This document shows, piece by piece, positions 13,844 to 64,000 of a DNA stretch of 64,000 bases. The notes beneath the pieces are model-generated. The model made no database searches. It was not told where the DNA came from and saw only the letters and a program-made list of their open reading frames with translations. Numbering within the stretch: the stretch's first letter is position 1; each line of letters begins with the position of its first letter. A program made the translations under genes and the position numbers. Source of the stretch: Phage NC-B; sequence record MK310183; one strand, written 5' to 3'.

Positions 13844-13852
13844 TAATGTATA
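13844..13852 (+). promoter_or_regulatory. Candidate phage-sigma promoter element TAATGTATA
   Basis: Motif 36 nt upstream of ATG 13889; same motif recurs upstream of several minus-strand genes. Confidence 0.4.
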
Positions 13853-40711: not shown

Positions 40712-41947
40712 TTATAGAGTTACTGCTACTTCGCTACCTTCAACATTGACAGACTCTAACTTGCGAGGGTTATGAATCTGGACTGGATTGACCGGAACGT
40801 TCCAACCACTGCGGTAGAAGTTACGACCATCACAGAACAGGATGACATTGGCAGACATTGCATTCGGTTGCAGGTTGTTGTGGACATGACGGATATTTGC
40901 AATCCAGTAGCCACGAGACAAAGTGTAGCCAGTAGGTGCATTACGAATAGTTTGAGTATTCATCTGACCTTCCAGTTGCATTTCTTCAGGAACCATATCA
41001 ACTGAATCAATCGGCTGTGCTACTTGTCCTTCCAGTGCAAAGTTTTCATCATCAGCACTTTCACTGTCATCAACCAACTCACCATCTCCGTCTTCAATCG
41101 GAGTCTGGTAAACCACTTTATACTGAGGAGTATAGAGAGGGTTCTGAGCTTTAACAAACTCAAGAATGTTATGACGGTAGGTATCCAGAGTTGTACCAGT
41201 CAGGCCCGGTGCTGTATTAACTTCCAGTACCCACGCTTCTTGACCTTTGGTGATAATATCAACTGCACCGAAATCCAGACCCATTGATTCAACAGCTTTC
41301 ACTGCATTGATCAGAGAGGCGTCATTCGGAGCATCTGTGAAGGAGCTTGAGTAAACCCAGCCAGTGTGGTGATTACGAATATCTTCACGATAGTTAGGGT
41401 CTTCGCGATAACCATTGCGACGAATCTTCTTCTGAACATAGGTGATTACACCTTTGAACACATGGACACGCCACTCACGACGTGGGCCTTGAATGCCTTT
41501 AGTGTACAGTTCAGCTCGACCAAGACCATCACCCGGTTCTACAACAACAATGCCCGAACCAGAGTGACCAGTCAGCTCATGGCGCTCATACACAATATTA
41601 CCAGTGTTTGACCACTCTTGAGCAGTCTCTTGAGCATCTGTGTATTCCACAGTTTTAACACCTGCTTGGTCCATCACGCTGAAAGCACGACGTTTGTTCG
41701 CTGCCATATGTAAGGCTGCGGTACGGTTAAGGACGGTTGAAGAACCAAAGAATGATTCAGGATAGCGACGGTTCCCGTAGTTAACAACCACATCACCTTC
41801 ACGAGAACGCCAGCGGCTATTCTCTGAAAGAAGACCCATCACGTTAGCATTGATGCGTTCATCACGGATAGTATCACTGATAGCAGATACTAGAGCGTTA
41901 ACAGAATCAGACGGGCCATACGGAAGAACACGGATACGAGTAGTCAT
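40712..41947 (-). CDS. ATP-grasp fold ligase
   Basis: Motifs EWRVHVFKGVITYV and AWVLEVNTAPGL match ATP-grasp (RimK/glutathione-synthetase-like) signatures; 411 aa. Confidence 0.5.
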   Translation of the reverse strand: MTTRIRVLPYGPSDSVNALVSAISDTIRDERINANVMGLLSENSRWRSREGDVVVNYGNRRYPESFFGSSTVLNRTAALHMAANKRRAFSVMDQAGVKTVEYTDAQETAQEWSNTGNIVYERHELTGHSGSGIVVVEPGDGLGRAELYTKGIQGPRREWRVHVFKGVITYVQKKIRRNGYREDPNYREDIRNHHTGWVYSSSFTDAPNDASLINAVKAVESMGLDFGAVDIITKGQEAWVLEVNTAPGLTGTTLDTYRHNILEFVKAQNPLYTPQYKVVYQTPIEDGDGELVDDSESADDENFALEGQVAQPIDSVDMVPEEMQLEGQMNTQTIRNAPTGYTLSRGYWIANIRHVHNNLQPNAMSANVILFCDGRNFYRSGWNVPVNPVQIHNPRKLESVNVEGSEVAVTL

Positions 41948-41950
41948 TTT

Positions 41951-42172
41951 TTAGATACCTTTTAGTTTAAGAATTTCGTTACGACAGGATTGAATTTTAG
42001 CTTCGATTGCCCAATACTCAGCGAACATTTCGTCTTCTTGGGCATCGCTTGGAGAGTCGATTAAGTTAAAAGCAAACGGATACAGCTTTCGCTGCTCCGT
42101 TACCAGTTGTTGAAGTCGGAGTTGTTGATACTCCAGCATTGTCAGGTGAGGCTTAGCTCCCCTGTTTGACAT
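41951..42172 (-). CDS. Hypothetical protein
   Basis: ATG at 42172 (track start is TTG at 42181); 73 aa. Confidence 0.35.
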   Translation of the reverse strand: MSNRGAKPHLTMLEYQQLRLQQLVTEQRKLYPFAFNLIDSPSDAQEDEMFAEYWAIEAKIQSCRNEILKLKGI

Positions 42173-42386
42173 GAGGCTCAACTTTAATCCCCTTCATTTT
42201 AACATAGTCAGCCAACACGTTATTAATAACGGTTGGAAAAGGGATTTCTACTGGAGAGTCAACCAGCTTCCCAATACCTTCTTGCATCCACTTCTGGATT
42301 GCTCGGAGGTTATCACATCCTGTGCTTGTCATCGGAATACGGCGGGTAGTTACCACGTTATCCAACATCAGTTTACGAACTTCCAT
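42153..42386 (-). CDS. Hypothetical protein
   Basis: AAGAGG RBS, ATG; 77 aa. Confidence 0.4.
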   Translation of the reverse strand: MEVRKLMLDNVVTTRRIPMTSTGCDNLRAIQKWMQEGIGKLVDSPVEIPFPTVINNVLADYVKMKGIKVEPHVKQGS

Positions 42387-42397
42387 AACTATACCTC

Positions 42398-44401
42398 TTA
42401 GTGTTTACCTTTACAGTAATCTGAATTACAGATCACCCTGTTTTCTTTGTTCAGTGAGCAAGTTTCTGCATCACGCCACGGAATTTGTTTATAACAGACT
42501 GCACAAAACCCAATTGAAGTCCAGAGGGCTTTTGTAAACTCAGCTGTTCGTTGTCCATCGTAACTGACAACTGTTTTTCGGAGAGAGGTTGACTTTTCTG
42601 GAAATGTCTCCGCTTTCTCAGCGGGTACCTCCTTTGGGGCATTCTTTGGACCATAAACAGAGATGGCATAGGTATCACCACCACGTTTTTCCAAATACGA
42701 ATTAGGAACATCTGCAAGTGTGATATCCCCTGAACGTTTTGCTGAGCTAACCATTACAATCATACGGCTAAGCATACGTTCATCAACACGAACAGCTACT
42801 TCAGGACGACGTGGGTTGGTTGTGTCCACTGCTTTAGTCCAAATATAACCCTCAGACAGCGTAACATTCTTTACTTTGTCTTTGATTTCTTTGGAGCAGA
42901 TATAACAAACGTCTTCACCACGAAGTTTACTCATTTCGTTGTCAAACTCGAAATCAGTCTTGACTTCACCACAGATAGCACATACACCCAAAGGCACATC
43001 TTCTTCCTCTTCAGAGGTTTTAGATAACGCTTCGAAGCATTCTGGATGCCAGTATGCCTGATAAGCAAACACAGCCTTACGAGCATCTTTCCAGTCAATG
43101 TGCTTATCACAACCACCACAGTCACCATGAGAGTGAGACTCCCAGAACTTACGAGTGACTTCTACACCATTCTTAGTGATGAAGGAGTCCTCTGCATCAA
43201 AAGGGATATCATCATCAAAATCAGCAGTAGTGCTTTGAGGCTCCTTATCTGTAGCATCAACAAACAGCCCTGAAGTTAGTACGAGGCGAATCATACTGTC
43301 CACTTCGGAGATACAAGCAATCGTCCCGCGATATACTACCTTTGGGTTTTCAAGAGCCTTAAGATATTCATCTTTGGCTACGTTGTGAACATCCCCTTCG
43401 ACATACTCTTGGGCTTTATCATCGTAGATGTAACCAACCATCTTACCACGATCTGTGTTGTTATAAGCATGGAACTCGTGAGGAATAATATCCACACGAC
43501 CATCACGACGATAAGGAAGACCACGATCGGCAGCCAGTTTGTTCTGGTCTTCAATCGCTTTACGACGACGAATGTCTCCGCTTGTCACGCCGGGCTTGTC
43601 GTCTTTGTTTCCGTAAATGTCGCTTGTGCTGCTGCTTGATTTGTTTGTCTGTTGGTTCTGATATAGAGAGGAGTTCGAGTAATAGCCGCCCCAGCGACTC
43701 GTTATCGTAAAAACCGGAAGCTTGTGCTCCACCTCTTGAACCAGAGTCATACGACTGTTAGACACATCAAAGATATACTCAGTTCCCACTTTACACTCGA
43801 AGTGGTCATTGATACGGTTCTTATGGGACTTAGAACGCTCTAAAATCCACATAAGCATAGCTTCTTCAGAAGCCCCAAACCAATCTAAACCACAACGGGC
43901 TAGGTGGAAAGGACGCTCATCATTACGGATAATGTGAAGCGTGTTGTCTTTAGCATCATGCCAAATCAAAGTGAATGCACCATCCAGTTTTTGGATAGTC
44001 TCTGCTGCTCCAATGGTGTTAATTGAGTGGCAGATGTTTTCACTATCAACTTCGAAACGTTTACTGTCAGGAAGGAGATCTTGATCTAACAGGGTTCCAT
44101 TATGAACCAGAGTGATATCACCGTGAGTAAATGGGTGAGCGTTTCGAGCATTGACAGCCCCACGAGTGGCATGTCGGCTATGACCAACAATCCACGAAGG
44201 AGGAACTACGTAGTTCGTAAGTCCTTTGGTAATATTCTTATATTCTGTCTGGAGCATAAAAGCGTAAGAAGGAAGAGCTTCTTTGTAAGAGAAGACTTGC
44301 TTTTCACCTTTACGCTGACCAAACACACCAGTTGAGTGCTGTCCACGGAAAACACCAGCATACAGAAGTTGGTTGAAAATATCCAAATCTGTTGAGGTCA
44401 T
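42398..44401 (-). CDS. Ntn-hydrolase / class-II glutamine amidotransferase-like protein with C-terminal Cys-rich zinc-ribbon region
   Basis: N-terminal region has GAT-II-like HSRHATRG...NAHPF...LVHNGTL but begins MTST (no Cys2); C-terminal half has several CxxC pairs; 667 aa. Confidence 0.45.
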   Translation of the reverse strand: MTSTDLDIFNQLLYAGVFRGQHSTGVFGQRKGEKQVFSYKEALPSYAFMLQTEYKNITKGLTNYVVPPSWIVGHSRHATRGAVNARNAHPFTHGDITLVHNGTLLDQDLLPDSKRFEVDSENICHSINTIGAAETIQKLDGAFTLIWHDAKDNTLHIIRNDERPFHLARCGLDWFGASEEAMLMWILERSKSHKNRINDHFECKVGTEYIFDVSNSRMTLVQEVEHKLPVFTITSRWGGYYSNSSLYQNQQTNKSSSSTSDIYGNKDDKPGVTSGDIRRRKAIEDQNKLAADRGLPYRRDGRVDIIPHEFHAYNNTDRGKMVGYIYDDKAQEYVEGDVHNVAKDEYLKALENPKVVYRGTIACISEVDSMIRLVLTSGLFVDATDKEPQSTTADFDDDIPFDAEDSFITKNGVEVTRKFWESHSHGDCGGCDKHIDWKDARKAVFAYQAYWHPECFEALSKTSEEEEDVPLGVCAICGEVKTDFEFDNEMSKLRGEDVCYICSKEIKDKVKNVTLSEGYIWTKAVDTTNPRRPEVAVRVDERMLSRMIVMVSSAKRSGDITLADVPNSYLEKRGGDTYAISVYGPKNAPKEVPAEKAETFPEKSTSLRKTVVSYDGQRTAEFTKALWTSIGFCAVCYKQIPWRDAETCSLNKENRVICNSDYCKGKH

Positions 44402-44508
44402 GTTGCCGCCAGCTAATACGATACCACAAATTTTCTAATCCACCTGAAGGGTAAACCCTTTCATCTAATTAACCTTTAAATGCGCCCTTTATCAGAGCGC
44501 CCATTGTG

Positions 44509-45609
44509 TTACAGCAGTCGTTCTAACTGCATTTCCAGATGATCTGGAATATAACCAGTGACATTATCATCACTACTGCCTGATTCACGCATCAATGCAA
44601 ACATGTGACGAATCTCACCAACCGTTGCGGTTCGTGTATTCTCAATCTGGTTAGAGTAATGAGATAAGATTTCTTCATAGACACGGTTAGCATTACCACG
44701 AACATATCCCAAGAAACCATAGAAGTCATTCATGTCACGAAGATTAATCAAGATTTCTCCATCAGAACCTGTCTGATGTACACGAACTCGACCGACCAAA
44801 GTTACAGATCGCTCACGACAGAACAGAATATCTCGAGCAAGACGATACCCTTCAGTGAGATCACTATCTCTTGGGGTGTAGTCTAGAGGTAGATGTTGAA
44901 TCATAGGAGCGAAGCGCAGCTCATTCAACTTCTCAACATAAGCTTCATTGTCTAAATCTGCATATTCAACAGCCAGTTTCTTGAGAACCAAGAAACGATT
45001 GACCAGATTTAGCAGCTGACTCTTTTTCCACTTCGGCTCTGAGATACGGAACTCAACAGAACCAAACTGAGAGAGAGGTAACAGATTAAGGGAGGTGTAC
45101 TTGTCCCAGCTATTAACAAGAGTACGGAAGAAATCTTCCCCATCTCGGTTGAACGCTGATGAAGCATTCATAACTTGAGCTTGAACAACAGCAAAAGCTG
45201 GGCAGAAGTTACTACGGTAACGATGATATCCAGAACATTTGAACATCATCTTTTCATAGAACGTCCACCCAAGAATAACTTTCTTAAGGATATTACTATC
45301 AGCGTCCCGCATATCCATATGAACGTGAGTGGAGCAGCGCCAAGTTCCCTCGGCTCCAGAATCCTGTACCGCTTCACTCAGATTGTTAATAGCACGAAGT
45401 AATTCTTCACCGTTGTAAGGTCGTGAACAAACTAACTCACAACCATCACGAAGAGAGCCGTCTTCAGTACAAACCCACATATCGACGTCAATGTCAGTCG
45501 TACCTTCAACCTCTAACTCAATACCAACACCACACTGAAAGGCAATACTTGGATGCGGTTCAGATAAGCGAGGGTTACGGTATCCAAAAACTTGTGCTAC
45601 GGTTGTCAT
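44509..45609 (-). CDS. Amidoligase-family (glutamine synthetase-like carboxylate-amine ligase) protein
   Basis: GGTGGA RBS; motifs GIELEVEG and RCSTHVHMD fit the amidoligase pattern; 366 aa. Confidence 0.45.
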   Translation of the reverse strand: MTTVAQVFGYRNPRLSEPHPSIAFQCGVGIELEVEGTTDIDVDMWVCTEDGSLRDGCELVCSRPYNGEELLRAINNLSEAVQDSGAEGTWRCSTHVHMDMRDADSNILKKVILGWTFYEKMMFKCSGYHRYRSNFCPAFAVVQAQVMNASSAFNRDGEDFFRTLVNSWDKYTSLNLLPLSQFGSVEFRISEPKWKKSQLLNLVNRFLVLKKLAVEYADLDNEAYVEKLNELRFAPMIQHLPLDYTPRDSDLTEGYRLARDILFCRERSVTLVGRVRVHQTGSDGEILINLRDMNDFYGFLGYVRGNANRVYEEILSHYSNQIENTRTATVGEIRHMFALMRESGSSDDNVTGYIPDHLEMQLERLL

Positions 45610-46232
45610 AATGATTCCACCAACTCTACATTATATGATGACAGGTCTGAAGAAATATGCTTGAACTTCTCCAGAAGGTTTAAAGATTGACGACCATTGT
45701 CGCCATAACCAGCTTCAAGAAGCACGTTTCCAACGTAAGCCCCTTTGTAATAAACTTTTCCATCGACAGGATTGATATAGATGAAACGAGTAACCAACCC
45801 TTCAAACTCTGGATTAAACAGGTTGTACACCAAATCACCCGGAATCGAACGTCCGAGAGAAGGTGGAGCACCACGAAGTTTATTCCCCATCAAGCCTTTA
45901 GCTCGCTGACGAACAGGGTTAATATGGGTCCAGCTCACCATGTTATTACCATGCTGAAGGTATCCTACATCTGGAGACTCCAGAATGAGGTTGTGATCAA
46001 ACACTGGGATATTACTAACAATCTGACGTTCAAACTGACCTTCAGAGTTTTTAGTCCAGCGTTCCGCCTCAAACACTAAAGACATTTCAGCGTCGTGTGA
46101 GTAGTCGTCGATATCAAAGTTACCTTGCTGACGAACATCAAGCACATATAGAGGGAGGTTTTTACCATCAGGTGATCGCTGAGCAATCCATGTTCCACAA
46201 TAATAGTGTTGAAAATCTCTTAACAGGCTCAC
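45606..46232 (-). CDS. Hypothetical protein in amidoligase cluster
   Basis: GTG start 5 nt after AAGGTGA RBS; ATGA coupling to downstream gene; 208 aa. Confidence 0.45.
   Translation of the reverse strand: MSLLRDFQHYYCGTWIAQRSPDGKNLPLYVLDVRQQGNFDIDDYSHDAEMSLVFEAERWTKNSEGQFERQIVSNIPVFDHNLILESPDVGYLQHGNNMVSWTHINPVRQRAKGLMGNKLRGAPPSLGRSIPGDLVYNLFNPEFEGLVTRFIYINPVDGKVYYKGAYVGNVLLEAGYGDNGRQSLNLLEKFKHISSDLSSYNVELVESL
45625..45633 (-). promoter_or_regulatory. Candidate promoter element (variant TAATGTAGA)
   Basis: Minus-strand TATAATGTAGA ~20 nt upstream of amidoligase ATG. Confidence 0.25.
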
Positions 46233-46241
46233 AATATCACC

Positions 46242-47048
46242 TTATACAATCTGGAGTTTAGAGGAGAATTTATCCGCTTCTTTAACATCGTTACTGTTGA
46301 TGATGTTGTGAAGCTTTTCAATTGGAAGGCGAGAGTGAAGTGACATCAATACTTCTATATCACAACCCTGAACAACCTTATCCACTTGCTCATAAACAAA
46401 CTTGCGAGTGGACTTATCACCAATCCAGAAGTTAGAAAGAGAACGATATTCAATACCGTAATCTTTGTAGCGAATGGCAGAAGCCTTTCCGTACAACTCT
46501 TTACGACGAGTGTCTTTATCCATGATCACAGCTGGCAAGGACAGGAAGTAATCACACAACACACCCAACATCATTTGAGTTTGTCGAGTAATCTCTAAAG
46601 TCCCGGAGACACCAAGGTGCACATGACCCCCAGCAGTACGCAAACCTTTATCAGTTGCGACCGGTGAAGGGTTCTTTTGTCCAGTGAAGGCATTGAAATC
46701 AGGAGTACAACCAAATACAAAGGCTGACGGATGGAAAGATTCAAGCTCTTCTGAAGTGAACACATGAGAGCTAATCCCAAGTGCTGCCTCCATGCCACGT
46801 TCATTGAGAACTTTGTTAGTCAGATCAATACCGCGCTGAATGTTATCATCAAACGCTTCAAACCCTTTCTGTGGGTTAATATCAAACTCGGCCAGAACGT
46901 TGTCTTCTTGAAGACGAACATCAGGAGCCAGATCAATTTTATTATCTTTAGAACAGCCCAGCTTACCAGCCACAGAGGTGATAATACCGGAAGCAGTACG
47001 AACAAACATTTCAGGGTCAGAGCCAATAAGGAAAGCGCGCTTAGTCAT
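46242..47048 (-). CDS. Second amidoligase-like protein
   Basis: ATG at 47048 coupled (ATGACTAA); motifs GSDPEMFV and GGHVHLGV; 268 aa. Confidence 0.4.
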   Translation of the reverse strand: MTKRAFLIGSDPEMFVRTASGIITSVAGKLGCSKDNKIDLAPDVRLQEDNVLAEFDINPQKGFEAFDDNIQRGIDLTNKVLNERGMEAALGISSHVFTSEELESFHPSAFVFGCTPDFNAFTGQKNPSPVATDKGLRTAGGHVHLGVSGTLEITRQTQMMLGVLCDYFLSLPAVIMDKDTRRKELYGKASAIRYKDYGIEYRSLSNFWIGDKSTRKFVYEQVDKVVQGCDIEVLMSLHSRLPIEKLHNIINSNDVKEADKFSSKLQIV

Positions 47049-47991
47049 TGTAATACTCCACGAGTTCATCAAAAAGGGAAACAACACGAGCACCAGCTTC
47101 TTCTGGTGTCATTGAGGAAGGTACTGCTTGCATCAGACGTTCGATAAAACTTCGAACAGTAATTCTGTCCATACGCTGATCTAATACTTCTCGCTTGTGA
47201 CCTGCACAAGTTGACCAGAGACGTAACCACTCACTCATACTCTCATAATGGTCAGGGTCTTGGTCACGACGACGTGCCATACGACGGAGAACTCCATCAT
47301 TATGGTTTCGTACATAACCATCTCGGTTGTCATCAACACCGAATACATTCTGAACCCATACGTTTTCAGAAAATTCATCAGTGGTGCAAATTAATGGCAG
47401 AAATGCAATTGCACTCATGTCGCCATCAAAATAAGTCGCTGCTGACTCATCGGTTGAGTCTACGTCATTACTATAACACCAGCGACCAAAGAAGTTACGA
47501 CTTAAACCAGCTAAGCGTAGAGCTAAACCGATTCGTTGTCGCTTAAGCAACTCTTCCTTGTCTTGTACGCCTTCCTGAAGGAACTCCATTCCATTAAAAT
47601 CACCATCCAAATAGCTACGGATGGTCATTAGTCCAGTAAACACCTTGTCTGCTGGATGGTTTCGAAGGTTCACGGCAATGGAGTTCACCGAAGTGACAGA
47701 GAACATATCTTTATAGCAAGACATTGAGTTAAAAATATCTGTTGCTTCAACTAAAGCTCTTTCGATATCTTTAGCTGGCACGCCATAAAAATTGTGAGGC
47801 CAGAAGTTAATAACTTCAATTTCTGAAGTTCTATCACGAAGGCTTGTTCGGTTACGACTTTCACCGTTAATGTCTGTAACAGAATACATGTGCATGCAGT
47901 TAAAAGTACCAAAGCAAGCTCTTCCTTTGAACACTGACTCACCGAAATCCTCTGCCGGTGTTACCGGAGCAATCGATGCGGAGATTGACAT
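47041..47991 (-). CDS. Hypothetical protein in amidoligase cluster
   Basis: AGAGG RBS, ATG; 316 aa. Confidence 0.5.
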   Translation of the reverse strand: MSISASIAPVTPAEDFGESVFKGRACFGTFNCMHMYSVTDINGESRNRTSLRDRTSEIEVINFWPHNFYGVPAKDIERALVEATDIFNSMSCYKDMFSVTSVNSIAVNLRNHPADKVFTGLMTIRSYLDGDFNGMEFLQEGVQDKEELLKRQRIGLALRLAGLSRNFFGRWCYSNDVDSTDESAATYFDGDMSAIAFLPLICTTDEFSENVWVQNVFGVDDNRDGYVRNHNDGVLRRMARRRDQDPDHYESMSEWLRLWSTCAGHKREVLDQRMDRITVRSFIERLMQAVPSSMTPEEAGARVVSLFDELVEYYND

Positions 47992-56078: not shown

Positions 56079-56352
56079 TCTGGCGTTTAATTTCTTCAGT
56101 GAGTTGCTTATTAAGATCTTGAATACGCTTAATCTCCCAACCCAAAGAAGCCAAACGATCGTTACGTGCTTCGATTTGTTCCTGCATTTTAAGTAATTTG
56201 GAACGAACATCAGCATTAAAAACTTCTTCTTGCTTAAGAAGGAACTCGTAACGACGCTTCCAGCTTGCTGATTTATTTCTTAAAATAATAAATCCTAGAG
56301 TAGAAACAGTTACAGTGAGTACGAAAAGGAACTTATAAACCTCTAAAGACAT
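56047..56352 (-). CDS. Membrane-anchored coiled-coil protein
   Basis: AAGAGGA RBS; N-terminal TM helix then charged coiled coil; 101 aa. Confidence 0.45.
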   Translation of the reverse strand: MSLEVYKFLFVLTVTVSTLGFIILRNKSASWKRRYEFLLKQEEVFNADVRSKLLKMQEQIEARNDRLASLGWEIKRIQDLNKQLTEEIKRQNEETGDALKS

Positions 56353-56553
56353 ATCTTTATCCTCTTAAAGTAAGATATTATAAGAAATATTATTTAGAAT
56401 TTATTATTTCTAAACTTAATTCCTATCAATAATTTTCAGAGGTCTATATACAGTCATTACCTCTGGTCCCAAATCACTTCCACTTTTTACAGAGAAAATC
56501 ATAAGTGTGTGATTTATAAGGGAATTTAGTTTGTCAATCTTGGCACCTATGAA

Positions 56554-59431: not shown

Positions 59432-60344
59432 GATATTCACCTTTCAATTGTAAACGCACTATGCGCCGCTCTCTATGAGCTATTCAAGTCACAATGACTT
59501 AACACTAATCACTAACTGCTAGTAACCAGTGGTAAATCAGGCGGTCTTATCAGGAGTTAACCTTGCCGCCTAACTTGCCGTGATGTTTCATCTGGTGGAT
59601 TCAACTAATCGCTATAAACAAAGCCGATTTGCCAGCGATGATCAATCATCACAATAAGGCAAGCGCGTCCATCTCTAATTAGCTAAATTTCTAGCCGATG
59701 GCATTACTATTTACTTTGCTTTCGCTTCGTGATACCCTTTTATATCAACTCTCTAAACCTGCTTATCGCCTACTAAGGGAAAGCATATGGTAAAGAGTCA
59801 TTGACCGCCTAACACTTTGGCGTTTGATTATCTCTCTCACGATTTACTACACTACATGTTTATGTACTCACATCGCTATTGATGTGTATCAAAACACTCA
59901 CTTAGTAAATACTCACGCTTAAACCTTATTGTTAAATAGCAATTTGCTACTCTTTAACCCCCTCCCGCCGCTCGCTATTGAGCGTTAATTCGTCGGATTT
60001 GACTACCCCGATAAACGTCTATTATTGTAGCACTTTACTAGCACCGCCGCCGCTACCCTTTAACCGTAGGCGATTAGCTTAAGCCTTGCATGTACTCAAT
60101 AACTTCATTTATCAGTGGTGTCGTTTCCAGTAAGGGATTGTAAAGCGGTTTCCTCTGATACTCTAGAGCGCCTTACATCGTTTTATCTGGCATAGCTTGC
60201 AATGGTTATTATTGCTCACCATGTTCAACCGATATAGGAAGAAGTTTAAATTGTTAAAGAGCGGTAAATCTATCGAAGTGCTTTCTCACTTCCCGCCACC
60301 GTTCGCCGTGGTTTCACGTTTCACTAGTTGCCTAGTGAGTGCTC

Positions 60345-60373
60345 ATTATGAATCATCCTGTTTAGCGTGTCAA
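60345..60373 (-). promoter_or_regulatory. Sigma70-like promoter P-A (-35 TTGACA, 17-bp spacer, -10 CATAAT)
   Basis: Read on minus strand; A-tract upstream of -35. Confidence 0.5.
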
Positions 60374-60512
60374 CCACTTTTTAAATCTTTTTCTCGTCTA
60401 TTCTTTCGAATGACCAGTTAATCGCGTATTGGATTAACAAGATTGTAAGCGGTTGCGCTTAACTTTCTGATTCGTATTTTTAAAGAGCGGTGTTTCTTAC
60501 TGCTTAGTGAAC

Positions 60513-60540
60513 ATTCTATCAGAACGTTTCACCTTGTCAA
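60513..60540 (-). promoter_or_regulatory. Sigma70-like promoter P-B (-35 TTGACA, 16-bp spacer, -10 TAGAAT)
   Basis: Read on minus strand; A-tract upstream of -35. Confidence 0.5.
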
Positions 60541-60672
60541 CTCTTTTTATCGTCTTCTTTTTATTCTCTTCCCTTATCTCGCGTGAATCTTTGCGAAAGG
60601 GCTAGACGATAAATTGTTAAAGAGCGGGGCACTAAGTGCCGGATGTTTTAGGTCATCGCTGACCATGTGCAC

Positions 60673-60700
60673 ATCTTATCATAGTGATTCGACGTGTCAA
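60673..60700 (-). promoter_or_regulatory. Sigma70-like promoter P-C (-35 TTGACA, 16-bp spacer, -10 TAAGAT)
   Basis: Read on minus strand; A-tract upstream of -35. Confidence 0.45.
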
Positions 60701-60761
60701 CAACTATTTTTCGATTAATGCATCTTGATAAACTAGCGACCATTAAGGCCGCTAACATACC

Positions 60762-60962
60762 TTAGTTCATACGTTTAAAGGTTAAATCTTTATCCGTACT
60801 TACCAGCGATAACACTGCAATAGCTTTGCCTTTATCGGCATCGGCTACCATCTCTTTTGCCTGCTGTAATGTACTACCGACTATTCTCATAATCATGTTA
60901 GTAACGTTAATGCTAGTGCAAGTGATTTGCGTGTCTTTGCTTGAGAAGGTGTAAATATTCAT
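60762..60962 (-). CDS. Hypothetical protein
   Basis: ATG at 60962 with GAGGA RBS (track start is TTG at 61001); 66 aa. Confidence 0.4.
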   Translation of the reverse strand: MNIYTFSSKDTQITCTSINVTNMIMRIVGSTLQQAKEMVADADKGKAIAVLSLVSTDKDLTFKRMN

Positions 60963-61322
60963 TGATAAATCCTCATTATGGCATGGTTGGGAGTTTATCA
61001 AGATACACTAATCAGATTCTTAAAGAGCAAGGCTAAACATCTAGCCTATCAGGAGGTAATTTACTGCGTCACGTCCTGACAAGATTCAATATACACTATC
61101 CTAAAACCGTTGCAAGCCTTTTTCTAAAATAATTTCACTTTCTTTTGTGTACAGAGGAACGCGCACACGAATAACATCAGGGGAGGAAGAAAACAAGCCC
61201 TATAATCGAAATCTAGGCACGTAGGAAGCATCCTAGCGAGCTAAACAGGGGCAAGATGTGCAATCACCTTAGAAATGAAAAAAGCGCCTCAAAAGGGCGC
61301 TTAGGGAAGTTTTACGGATTGT

Positions 61323-61649
61323 TTACGGATTAGTGCATGTGCCGTTACCGGATGATATTTCGTTCATCGACTCATCGAACAACGTCATGCTAGACCGCAT
61401 CATGTGATCAATAGTAATTTGTTTGCCTGTAGTTTCGTTAACAAGCATCGCATACTTGCCATCAACGACCTTGTTGTCGTAATCATTCAGGTCAATCAAT
61501 ACTACCTTGCTGGACTTCTTGCCAGTGTCGTAATTTTCCATAAGATAGGTGCATTGTAGGCCATCGAGATTAGCCTCATTGAACACGGCAGCATGAGATA
61601 CGGAAGAAATAGCGAACAAGGCAGCACATACAGCTAACTTAATTTTCAT
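61323..61649 (-). CDS. Secreted protein (signal peptide)
   Basis: ATG at 61649; N-terminus MKIKLAVCAALFAISSVSHA; 108 aa. Confidence 0.45.
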   Translation of the reverse strand: MKIKLAVCAALFAISSVSHAAVFNEANLDGLQCTYLMENYDTGKKSSKVVLIDLNDYDNKVVDGKYAMLVNETTGKQITIDHMMRSSMTLFDESMNEISSGNGTCTNP

Positions 61650-62016: not shown

Positions 62017-62265
62017 TTAATTATCCTCGACGGTTAATAGTTCTTCTAGTGACAAACCGGATTTAACCAGCAAATCACGATATTCGTTAGCATCCATCGG
62101 ATCGAGGCCGGACAATTGAGCGATGGTCATGCGTGCACGTAATGAAGATAAGGAAGCTAAAGCACGGATAGGAATCAATACAAGGCCATATTTACCACTG
62201 ATAACTAAATCACCATGCTGAATGCACATATAGGAATTTACTACGGTTGCGAATGATTCATTCAT
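62017..62265 (-). CDS. Hypothetical protein
   Basis: ATG; ATGA coupling with upstream gene; 82 aa. Confidence 0.45.
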   Translation of the reverse strand: MNESFATVVNSYMCIQHGDLVISGKYGLVLIPIRALASLSSLRARMTIAQLSGLDPMDANEYRDLLVKSGLSLEELLTVEDN

Positions 62266-63122
62266 TGGATAGCCTCACAATTAGCAAAGTTAATAAAGGT
62301 TGTATAAACTGCTACACCGTCATTGTAGGCAGTGGTAGCGAGTACAGTTTCACTCACATCACCATAACTAACGAGATTAGTCACGAACTGTAATTTCTCT
62401 TTCTCAACCTTCTGATACAGAGAATAAGTAACCATGTCATGATCACTATCAGCACGCTTTAAATTAATAACCGACTGAATGCCTGATTTCTCACCTAACG
62501 GGGTAAGAGTGACACGCACATCTTTTACGGTTACAGAGTTAAAATGCACCTTCCAGAATGAATCATTACCATCACTGCCAACGTCACGGCAAGCCATATC
62601 AGGAGCATTCTTAAACGTGCTAACAAAGGATTGCAGACCTGTAGAAAGAGAGTCTTTTGCCTGCACATTGGTAGCGATAGCACTAACACCGATAGCTGCA
62701 ACCAGTGCATAACTTGCAAGGTTGACAGACTTCATAATCTTACTTGCAATAGAAGGCTTGCTATCTTTCTTCTTGTTCTGAATAGCTTCAACCATAGCAG
62801 ACAAGCGGGCTAATACTGCGTTAACATCGCGGCAAGATTCAGGCCAATCCTTTTGAGTCCAACTATCTAAATTAGCCTGAATGTAACAGTTGATAGCATC
62901 TTGCATATCGGTAAAACCATTCTCTTTCATCGACTCTTTATCTTCACACTGTAAGGCGTTCGCGGTGGAATCAATGATAAGGCAAGCCAGAATGACAGAG
63001 TTTTTGAAGCTGGTACGAGCTTGCTGATTATCCATCCATTGAGAAGGCACACCAACGGAAAGACCTAACGAAGAAAGTACATCATTTGCTTGATTCAAGT
63101 ATTTAATTGCTAACTTTGACAT
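62262..63122 (-). CDS. Hypothetical protein (first gene of minus-strand block)
   Basis: AAAGGA RBS, ATG; 286 aa with internal hydrophobic segment. Confidence 0.5.
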   Translation of the reverse strand: MSKLAIKYLNQANDVLSSLGLSVGVPSQWMDNQQARTSFKNSVILACLIIDSTANALQCEDKESMKENGFTDMQDAINCYIQANLDSWTQKDWPESCRDVNAVLARLSAMVEAIQNKKKDSKPSIASKIMKSVNLASYALVAAIGVSAIATNVQAKDSLSTGLQSFVSTFKNAPDMACRDVGSDGNDSFWKVHFNSVTVKDVRVTLTPLGEKSGIQSVINLKRADSDHDMVTYSLYQKVEKEKLQFVTNLVSYGDVSETVLATTAYNDGVAVYTTFINFANCEAIQ

Positions 63123-63309
63123 TTCATTAATCCTTTCGGTTGATGTGAACTACAAACTACGATTGCAACTATATATTAAAGGAAAAACCTGTCAACTACT
63201 TATTTTCAAACTATTTCATAACTCACTGAATATAAAAGGAATTTAATTTACTAAACTTACTTGTTCAGAGATACAGCTTACCAAATAGATGTTATTTTAT
63301 AACACTTAC

Positions 63310-63410
63310 AGAACGGGTAGCAGACCAACGGGATAGATAGATGGGTAAGACGTGCCGCATAGGTTAGCCAATGGGTAAGAAGCCTAACGGGGAACGGGAA
63401 ACGGGTAGGG
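63310..63410. repeat. Iteron-like direct repeats, cluster 1 (5 copies of (A/C)(C/T)GGGTA(G/A)G)
   Basis: ACGGGTAGC, ACGGGATAG, ATGGGTAAG, ATGGGTAAG, ACGGGTAGG within 100 bp. Confidence 0.5.
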
Positions 63411-63413
63411 TAT

Positions 63414-63422
63414 AATGTAAGT
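63414..63422 (+). promoter_or_regulatory. Candidate promoter element (variant TAATGTAAG) pointing rightward out of the window
   Basis: TATAATGTAAG next to iteron cluster; divergent from minus-strand early genes. Confidence 0.3.
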
Positions 63423-63779
63423 TAGTTACAGGTAACAGGTCAGACCATGCGGTAATAAATTACCAGTCAAATTCCTACTCATCAAAAGAAAAAAGAAACG
63501 CTGAAAAAGAAAAAGATTAAAAGAATAAACATAATCATTATTAAAATAATAACTTAAGTAAACTAAATCCAGTCTAATGATACATACATCAATAATCCAC
63601 TCATGAAACATTAACATAGGTTATCACTATTAAACTTGGGGTAGTGTGAGGATTGATATAATTGCATAGTGTTACCATATGGTGATCGTTAATTACGTTA
63701 GGTTATTGTTAGCTAGATCATAGTGCCTTAACTAGATTGTTATCAGTGCTAGCCTTTCATCCCTTCTCAACATGAGTAA

Positions 63780-63900
63780 GAGAAATACGGGTAGGAAATC
63801 ACTGGTTAGATATACATGGGTAGATAATCAATGTCTAATATTAATGGGTAGGGTATTTATGGGTAGGCGTACCACTGAACGCAGGTAGGGCAGGGCTTAG
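63780..63900. repeat. Iteron-like direct repeats, cluster 2
   Basis: ACGGGTAGG, ATGGGTAGA, ATGGGTAGGG, ATGGGTAGG, CAGGTAGGG; AT-rich tract 63480-63600 separates the two clusters. Confidence 0.5.
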
Positions 63901-64000
63901 GGCTTAAAGGCTGATTGATTTCCTAAAGGCAATTGCATTGGTAATAACCCTTTTTTAAATGAGGACTCCCCCCCTTTTAGGAAACGCGCTCGGAGAGGCT

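Follow-up and report, generated by a model that had tools for sequence, protein, structure and literature searches.

What is the function of two clusters of short, same-strand repeats that lie close to the end of a sequenced phage genome? The repeats in question occupy the non-coding right end, about 880 bp, of a 64,000-nt stretch of Phage NC-B (record MK310183; hereafter "the window", with positions counted from its first letter). An earlier sequence-only reading of this DNA described copies of GGGTA(G/A)G in two clusters separated by an AT-rich tract, and proposed that they are iterons of a replication origin or, alternatively, part of a terminal-repeat or packaging region. The arrays appear to act in cis, and on sequence grounds they are the short-repeat component of a genome-end control region, with one array inside the direct terminal repeat (DTR) of the genome. 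We tentatively propose, at somewhat less than an even chance, that they lie in the concatemer-junction region as arrays to which a protein binds, and that their role is in end processing, as has been suspected for the short-repeat arrays SRR and SRL of phage T7. The elements on which this argument turns are as follows:

63312-63410, + strand: cluster 1, an array of A-Y-GGG-K-A-R units, with strong units at 63314, 63342, 63372 and 63402 and weaker ones at 63329, 63361, 63388 and 63395.

63751-64000, no strand: DTR of 250 bp, placed by homology; left boundary ..CAGTGCT/AGCCTTTC (the slash marks the boundary), right boundary ..GAGAGGCT, which is the last base of the window.

63786-63867, + strand: cluster 2, the same units within the DTR, with strong units at 63788, 63817, 63845 and 63860 and a weak one at 63803.

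63881-63906, + strand: G-rich tail of cluster 2, GCAGGTAGGGCAGGGCTTAGGGCTTA, including a tandem duplication of GGGCTTA.

63946-63989, no strand: the most conserved part of the DTR, AACCCTTTTTTAAATGAGGACTCCCCCCCTTTTAGGAAACGCGC, also written AACCCTTTTTTAAATGAGGACTCCCCC(CC)TTTTAGGAAACGCGC, nearly invariant in both lineages considered below.

The repeats are concentrated at this locus and confined to one strand. The nine-nucleotide motif MYGGGTARG is matched exactly eight times in the 64 kb; six of these matches belong to the region, every one of them on the + strand (63341, 63371, 63401, 63787, 63844 and 63859), and motif and coordinates had thus been read correctly at the outset. When up to one mismatch is allowed, the region holds nine + strand copies. 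The shorter motif YGGGTAR is not above chance over the whole window (21 matches, with 17.2 expected), yet eight of the 21 are crowded into 63314-63866, every one on the + strand; at the background rate, 0.06 matches would be expected in 601 bp of one strand (Poisson P = 4.9e-15). The pentamer GGGTA occurs 11 times on the + strand of 63300-64000, where base composition predicts 0.73, and is absent from the - strand. About six degenerate units lie between the strong ones (63329 CGGGATAG, 63361 AGGTTAG, 63388 CGGGGAA, 63395 CGGGAAA, 63803 TGGTTAG and 63883 CAGGTAGGG), and since these occupy the gaps, the units of each cluster recur almost regularly, every ~14.5 bp, the strong sites being 28-30 bp apart. 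Measured between [CT]GGG[GT]A sites, the spacings are 28, 30, 16 and 14 bp in cluster 1, and 29, 28 and 15 bp in cluster 2. The array unit is therefore best described as a short one-strand core, A-(C/T)-GGG-(T/G)-A-(A/G), of 7-9 bp with a period of ~14.5/29 bp. Cluster 1 is part of the unique right-end DNA and has the first leftward early promoter on one side and an A-rich tract on the other. Cluster 2, which includes a tandem pair of 29-bp units spanning 63776-63833, makes up the left half of the DTR; its strong sites stand at offsets +37, +66, +94 and +109 (first DTR base = 0), such that it begins 37 bp inside the left DTR boundary and hence close to the terminase cleavage positions. The gap between the two clusters is ~380 bp.

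The placement of the DTR follows from relatives with mapped ends. For positions 62900-64000 the best match is Bas87 (89.7%), and sequence matches are found only among the phiEco32-like podophages of E. coli and Shigella (Gordonclarkvirinae). Phages of this type have short direct terminal repeats: restriction analysis, primer walking and subcloning established a repeat of 193 bp in phiEco32, and a 193-bp repeat was confirmed in SU10 by read drop-off and in YF01 by full-length nanopore reads (PMC9965538, PMC4281155). Indeed, comparison of the two ends of the phiEco32 record gave exactly 193 bp in common. In the alignment to phiEco32, window position 63751 corresponds to phiEco32 nt 1 and position 64000 to nt 193/77554; the right boundary, ..GGAAACGCGC....GGCT, falls at the last base, 64000. 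The records of SU7 and HC-25922 begin at the equivalent of 63751, and that of UKE3 at the equivalent of 63752. From these homologous boundaries and record starts, we infer that 63751-64000 is a 250-bp DTR, so the terminal-repeat alternative of the sequence-only reading had the right location, with cluster 2 inside the repeat. Because a chance slice is very unlikely to end exactly at a DTR boundary, the window is, by this alignment, the final 64 kb of a linear phiEco32-like podophage record and closes with the right terminal repeat. The accompanying suggestion that the genome might be circularly permuted across the window boundary is wrong, since phiEco32-type genomes physically end, on the right, at the position that aligns with 64000.

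When set beside the 193-bp repeat of phiEco32, SU10 and YF01 (Kuravirus), the repeat of the window is homologous at both boundaries, at its first array site (+37) and in the CCCTTTTTTA...AGGAAACGCGC block; it differs in its length, 250 bp, which is mainly due to extra array units, and in a GGGTA rather than a GGGGA core. The most conserved part of the repeat has been noticed before, with conservation at ~130-170 of the repeat reported for YF01 (PMC9965538) and CCCTTTTTTA-10 nt-CCCTTTTTTA described in the terminal repeat of SU10 (PMC4281155). Several records of the family show other arrangements of their ends. Those of SU7, UKE3 and PAS59 end within cluster 2 (equivalent of 63803-63817), giving apparent repeats of 53, 55 and 275 bp, respectively. 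For SU7, the 53-bp value was obtained with PhageTerm and is doubted by its own authors (PMC8399022). The annotated 275-bp repeat of PAS59 (equivalent of 63542-63817) conflicts with the phiEco32 boundaries, and we treat it as an assembly overlap because the corresponding paper reports Nextera reads and MIRA assembly with no analysis of termini. In the record of phage WFI101126 (MK373770.1), the last 193 bp (1238-1430 of the stretch analysed) are the reverse complement of the terminal repeat; this inverted right-end copy is probably a finishing artefact. In most relatives, both DTR boundaries read GCT/AG (..GTGCT/AGCC.. and ..GGCT/AGG..; window 63748-63752 and 63998-64000), a possible shared cleavage context, and the AGCCTTT at the start of the DTR is mirrored by AAAGGCT ~150 bp further inside.

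The arrays are a constant feature of the family. We assembled 18 junctions, ten from the lineage of the window (group A), seven from the phiEco32 lineage and one from Bas89. Each has between four and 11 copies of [CT]GGG[GT]A on the + strand and none on the - strand, and the clusters lie at -456 to -253 and +37 to +140 relative to the DTR start. All 18 phages keep the first DTR site, ACGGG at +37, unchanged, whereas the spacers vary. The same variant dominates both clusters of a phage: mostly A(C/T)GGGTA(A/G)G in the window lineage, mostly ACGGGGA(A/G/T) in the phiEco32 lineage, and ACGGGG(A/C/T)A in Bas89. The motif variant thus shifts in concert in the two clusters. Both variants occur in both lineages. 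In the ten group-A phages, a block of ~170 bp around cluster 1 is nearly invariant, with variable, indel-rich DNA on either side. Copy number also differs: the DTR is 193, 205 or 249-250 bp long in different relatives, much of this difference between lineages being explained by array copy number, and it reaches ~281 bp in TH42, which has one extra 31-bp array unit (offsets +66 to +97). This pattern of conservation speaks for cores that are under selection and for one reader that the two clusters have in common; gene conversion between the clusters could also be the source of the concerted change.

The closest parallel is found in T7. Our re-analysis of the T7 sequence shows that its ends share 160 bp, and that CCTAAAG-type heptamers, all on one strand and mostly with a period of 12-13 bp, lie before the repeat, inside it (four copies) and after it (12 copies). 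These arrays are said to have been named SRR, TR and SRL by Dunn and Studier, and we know of no function established for them to date. The window resembles T7 in having a short core (7 bp in T7) with variable spacers and a regular period on one strand, in and near the DTR of a linear genome (in the window, four to six units inside the 250-bp DTR, from +37 to about +135). It also encodes a T7-like replisome, with a family A polymerase and a DnaB-type primase-helicase identified by Pfam. The differences are that the motifs are unrelated (CCTAAAG in T7, AYGGGKAR in the window), that the period is 14.5/29 bp rather than mostly 12-13 bp, and that the T7 arrays lie directly beside the repeat on both sides, whereas the family of the window has none past the DTR and cluster 1 is 340 bp away from it. 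We suppose that the arrays are cooperative, double-stranded DNA sites for a protein that is probably phage-encoded. Such a protein would label or arrange the point where one genome copy joins the next, and the junction so marked would be the place at which the terminal repeat is cut, duplicated and packaged; the same role has been suspected for the CCTAAAG arrays in SRR, TR and SRL.

Several observations weigh against end processing as the function of the arrays. To our knowledge, no binding protein is known for them and no experiment ties such arrays to packaging, either here or in T7. The DTR boundaries of Phage NC-B rest on homology, and the left genome end lies outside the window. Cluster 1 does not adjoin the DTR, since it ends 340 bp before it (the array is ~340-440 bp upstream), and the 400 bp of unique DNA to the right of the DTR, at the left genome end, contain no array in 12 relatives. 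The very unstable A-rich tract beside cluster 1 would suit an origin equally well. Lastly, the candidate small terminase (157 aa, phrog_8771), called PaP3-like in PMC9965538, is 90% identical between a window-lineage phage and a phiEco32-lineage contig that have different motif variants, and therefore gives no signal of co-variation with the arrays, which if anything leans against it as their reader. PHROGs and Pfam assigned no function to this protein or to four neighbouring genes. For so conserved a protein, the invariant block at 63946-63989 is a better match than the arrays, and we consider that block the candidate recognition site of the small terminase; it loosely resembles the cos oligonucleotide GCCGGCCCCTTTCCGCGTTA that is bound by PaP3 TerS (PMC7672466). 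With the candidate terminase site better placed there, we regard the arrays as accessory sites for another protein. The same points bear on the R sites of lambda cosB and on pacL/pacR of SPP1, where repeats likewise lie near the points at which a packaging substrate is cut; in the window, by contrast, the candidate small terminase gives no sign of tracking the motif, and 63946-63989 is the better candidate site.

The alternatives involve the remaining elements of the right end:

62262-63122, - strand: first leftward gene, 286 aa, with its start codon at 63122.

63168-63195, - strand: sigma70-type early promoter TTGACA-16-TATAGT (11/12 in a promoter scan), for the first leftward gene.

63411-63421, + strand: promoter-like element TATAAT/TAATGTAAG, directly 3' of cluster 1; resembles the phage-sigma motif tAATGTAtA.

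63451-63464, no strand: palindrome GGTAATAAATTACC (GGTAATAATATACC in phiEco32), with flanks and most positions conserved in both lineages.

63484-63603, + strand: A-rich, purine-skewed tract of low stability, with the core ACGCTGAAAAAGAAAAAG at 63498-63515.

63569-63609, no strand: conserved block CCAGTCTAATGATACATACATCAATAATCCACTCATGAAAC, almost invariant within each lineage; the core ATACATACATCA.TA.T.CACTCAT is common to both lineages.

63654-63662, + strand: extended -10-like element TGATATAAT, read from the sequence; points into the DTR.

~63666-63750, no strand: variable stretch between TGATATAAT and the DTR.

The leftward sigma70 promoter is kept in sequence in 18 of 18 junctions, and the homologous site is annotated as a promoter in SU7. 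With rightward early genes following the left-end repeat, the divergence of transcription units anticipated by the sequence-only reading is borne out. The element at 63411-63421, TATAATGTAAG, is invariant in the ten group-A phages, reads TAATGTATG in Bas89 and is absent from the phiEco32 group. The phage-sigma motif that it resembles is described in PMC4281155, and four perfect TAATGTATA copies occur elsewhere in the window, at 13844 (+), 23227 (-), 23298 (+) and 29577 (-). The symmetry of the palindrome is weakened by substitutions in several group-A phages (Bas88, TH34, TH42 and TH43). The extended -10-like element persists in only part of group A, as TGnTATAAT or TGnTATAGT, and was missed by the two-hexamer promoter scan. 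The AT-rich tract between the clusters is real, with a GC content of 0.21-0.23 at 63450-63600. Within it, 63504-63603 ranks second for low stability among the 100-bp duplexes of the window, ~4 standard deviations from the mean; 56334-56433 is less stable still. The core of the tract, ACRCTGAAAAAGAAAA, is the only part that is conserved across the family, and its conservation extends to the distant phages GAP52 and 7-11. From the end of cluster 1 it is ~75-90 bp to the beginning of the tract (63484) and ~95 bp to 63504-63603; cluster 2 is ~190-220 bp from the tract.

An alternative possibility, which has substantial points in its favour but which we think somewhat less likely than end processing, is that the locus is a replication origin, either because the repeats are iteron-like sites for a phage or host initiator that flank an unwinding element at 63484-63603, or because a T7-style promoter at 63411-63421 is transcribed into the A-rich tract to prime DNA synthesis. 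The instability of the tract, its closeness to cluster 1 and the reach of its conserved core are all consistent with such a function, and the arrays share with the iteron origins of lambda (ori) and of plasmids P1, RK2, R6K and pSC101 the arrangement of same-orientation direct repeats beside an AT-rich, easily melted tract. To this extent the features of the locus agree with the origin proposed in the sequence-only reading; the size and period of the units, the lack of DnaA boxes and the lack of a recognisable Rep/O initiator do not fit it. Iterons are 17-22 bp long, recur every ~22 bp and are accompanied by a cognate Rep/O gene and in many cases by DnaA boxes, whereas the cores in the window are 7-9 bp at a period of 14.5/29 bp. 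No DnaA box (TTATCCACA, up to one mismatch) is present in 63100-64000, and the array core itself, compared directly with the DnaA box, matches at ~6/9 positions at best. Likewise, no Rep-, O- or DnaA-like gene appears among the Pfam hits of the ten largest open reading frames (ORFs) of the replication module or in the annotation of Bas87, although dozens of small hypothetical early proteins are uncharacterised. Cluster 2 is well separated from the tract and inside the terminal repeat, and the existence of an even less stable segment elsewhere in the window weakens the argument from stability. As for the promoter-primed version, the primary origin of T7 combines a phage promoter with an AT-rich region and a primase site; the window similarly has a T7-like replisome and, in its own lineage, a conserved promoter-like element between cluster 1 and the tract, which follows ~65 bp on. 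That element is missing in the phiEco32 lineage, however, and the arrays have no counterpart at the T7 primary origin; the analogous arrays of T7 lie elsewhere. The T7-type primase site TGGTC is the reverse complement of part of the conserved CAGACCA beside cluster 1, and CAGACCA is not enriched in the window. The distant relatives do carry DnaA boxes near the tract core. In GAP52 (Cronobacter, NC_019402.1), five perfect TTATCCACA boxes lie within 190 bp (443-631 of the stretch analysed), 170-370 bp left of the tract core. They take up the position that cluster 1 has in the window, in non-coding DNA bounded by the leftward early promoters and the conserved CTGAAAAGAAAAAG tract; these are true boxes, of which the window has none. 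Salmonella phage 7-11 has two one-mismatch DnaA boxes ~300-370 bp right of the tract core; a one-strand row of imperfect boxes lies at ~915-990 of the stretch analysed. This suggests, from the sequences, that DnaA may be recruited in GAP52 and 7-11. Origin and end processing might also be combined: since one array lies inside the DTR and the other beside the conserved A-rich melting tract, the arrays could be nucleation sites for a putative phage protein that polymerises head-to-tail on one face of the end region, coupling the start of right-end DNA synthesis to duplication and cutting of the DTR. We consider this coupling unlikely.

The arrays could instead control transcription, as regulator sites upstream of two divergent early promoters (leftward at 63195-63168, and rightward just past the left-end repeat) or by modulating read-through of the junction. 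Each cluster is indeed ~120-270 bp upstream of an early promoter, the promoter-like elements at 63411 and 63654 point into the DTR, and the A0 promoter of T7 is annotated at nt 224, inside the left array of that phage. We nonetheless judge regulation to be quite unlikely. The arrays are far upstream of both early promoters, and because they share one absolute orientation they face the two promoters in opposite senses; no regulator gene was recognised, and early shut-off in phiEco32 is generally attributed to gp79 acting on RNA polymerase rather than to an operator-binding repressor (see also PMC12276001). We give the same low standing to the possibility that the arrays have no sequence-specific function and were left behind when slippage and unequal recombination acted on non-coding end DNA, in a region kept for other reasons. 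The degeneracy of the units and the change of copy number by whole units (in TH42, and between DTRs of 193 and 250 bp) would be expected of such a process; it would not account for the retention of position, strand and core (ACGGG/AYGGG) across lineages with diverged spacers and flanks, for the sharing of one variant in each lineage by clusters 380 bp apart, or for a cluster 1 block far more conserved than its surroundings. Least probable, and by our estimate very improbable, is a small gene or structured RNA, including the 38-codon ORF at 63772-63888. This ORF is open in nine of ten group-A phages, and UKE3 annotates it as a coding sequence (21-137 in UKE3); it is cut short in TH42, is absent from the phiEco32 lineage and Bas89, and has no Shine-Dalgarno sequence before its ATG, as read from the sequence. 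Its variable sites are distributed 9/11/8 over the three codon positions, without a third-position excess; given this lack of codon-position bias, the ORF was probably called as a gene in error. A structured RNA or single-stranded DNA is rejected on two counts: Rfam gave no match at E up to 1, and folding z-scores against shuffled controls were 0.49 for the terminal repeat and 0.11 for cluster 1. Single strands thus fold no better than shuffled ones, which also agrees with a by-product of recombination.

Three further candidates for the repeats were set aside. A potential G-quadruplex, GGGGAACGGGAAACGGGTAGGG (63389-63410, +), has the canonical pattern, but several close relatives lack its first or fourth G-run, and it is probably incidental. 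Chi-like protection from RecBCD does not suit the array motif, which is not Chi. The NarL heptamer TACCCAT is the reverse complement of ATGGGTA, and the GGGGA variant does not fit it.

Elsewhere in the window, the ~1.9 kb at 59441-61322 lack a convincing ORF and have no Rfam match. This spacer includes an untranslated leader of ~900 nt, a strong terminator at 61302-61282 (-), three near-consensus sigma70 promoters (-) at 60700, 60540 and 60373, and three exact copies of TTAAAGAGCGG at 60254, 60480 and 60617; three promoters have been described in the equivalent spacer of SU10 (PMC4281155). Next to it, 61323-61649 (-) encodes a 108-aa protein that matches a PHROG labelled "terminase", an annotation that it also has in Bas87; the label is doubtful, since the start of the protein looks like a secretion signal (MKIKLAVCAALFAISSVSHA). 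Beside the replication genes, 40712-47093 encodes ATP-grasp (weak, below the Pfam cut-off), glutamine amidotransferase, amidoligase and phiEco32-type COOH-NH2 ligase domains; covalent DNA modification is suspected in this subfamily by the authors of the BASEL paper (PMC11990801).

The terminal repeat is already known for this family. The arrays, by contrast, are not discussed in the literature on the family that we covered (the primary phiEco32 papers, PMC2587145 and PMC3275717, lie outside that coverage), and a full-text search returned nothing relevant tying phiEco32 to iterons or Kuravirus to an origin of replication. Gordonclarkvirinae are common E. coli phages, and the BASEL collection (PMC11990801) now offers members that grow on K-12; K-12 hosts, together with natural variants in motif type and array length, make mutational and pull-down tests straightforward; TH42, with its extra unit, is a natural copy-number variant useful for such experiments. 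Given that several family records end in or beside cluster 2 or carry an inverted DTR, a correct map of this region would aid finishing and annotation, including removal of the spurious coding sequence in the DTR. If synthesis at the right end is indeed coupled to processing of the DTR, the locus would be an origin without a Rep protein that doubles as an end-processing device, and these phages would provide a second, tractable system for the short-repeat arrays of T7.

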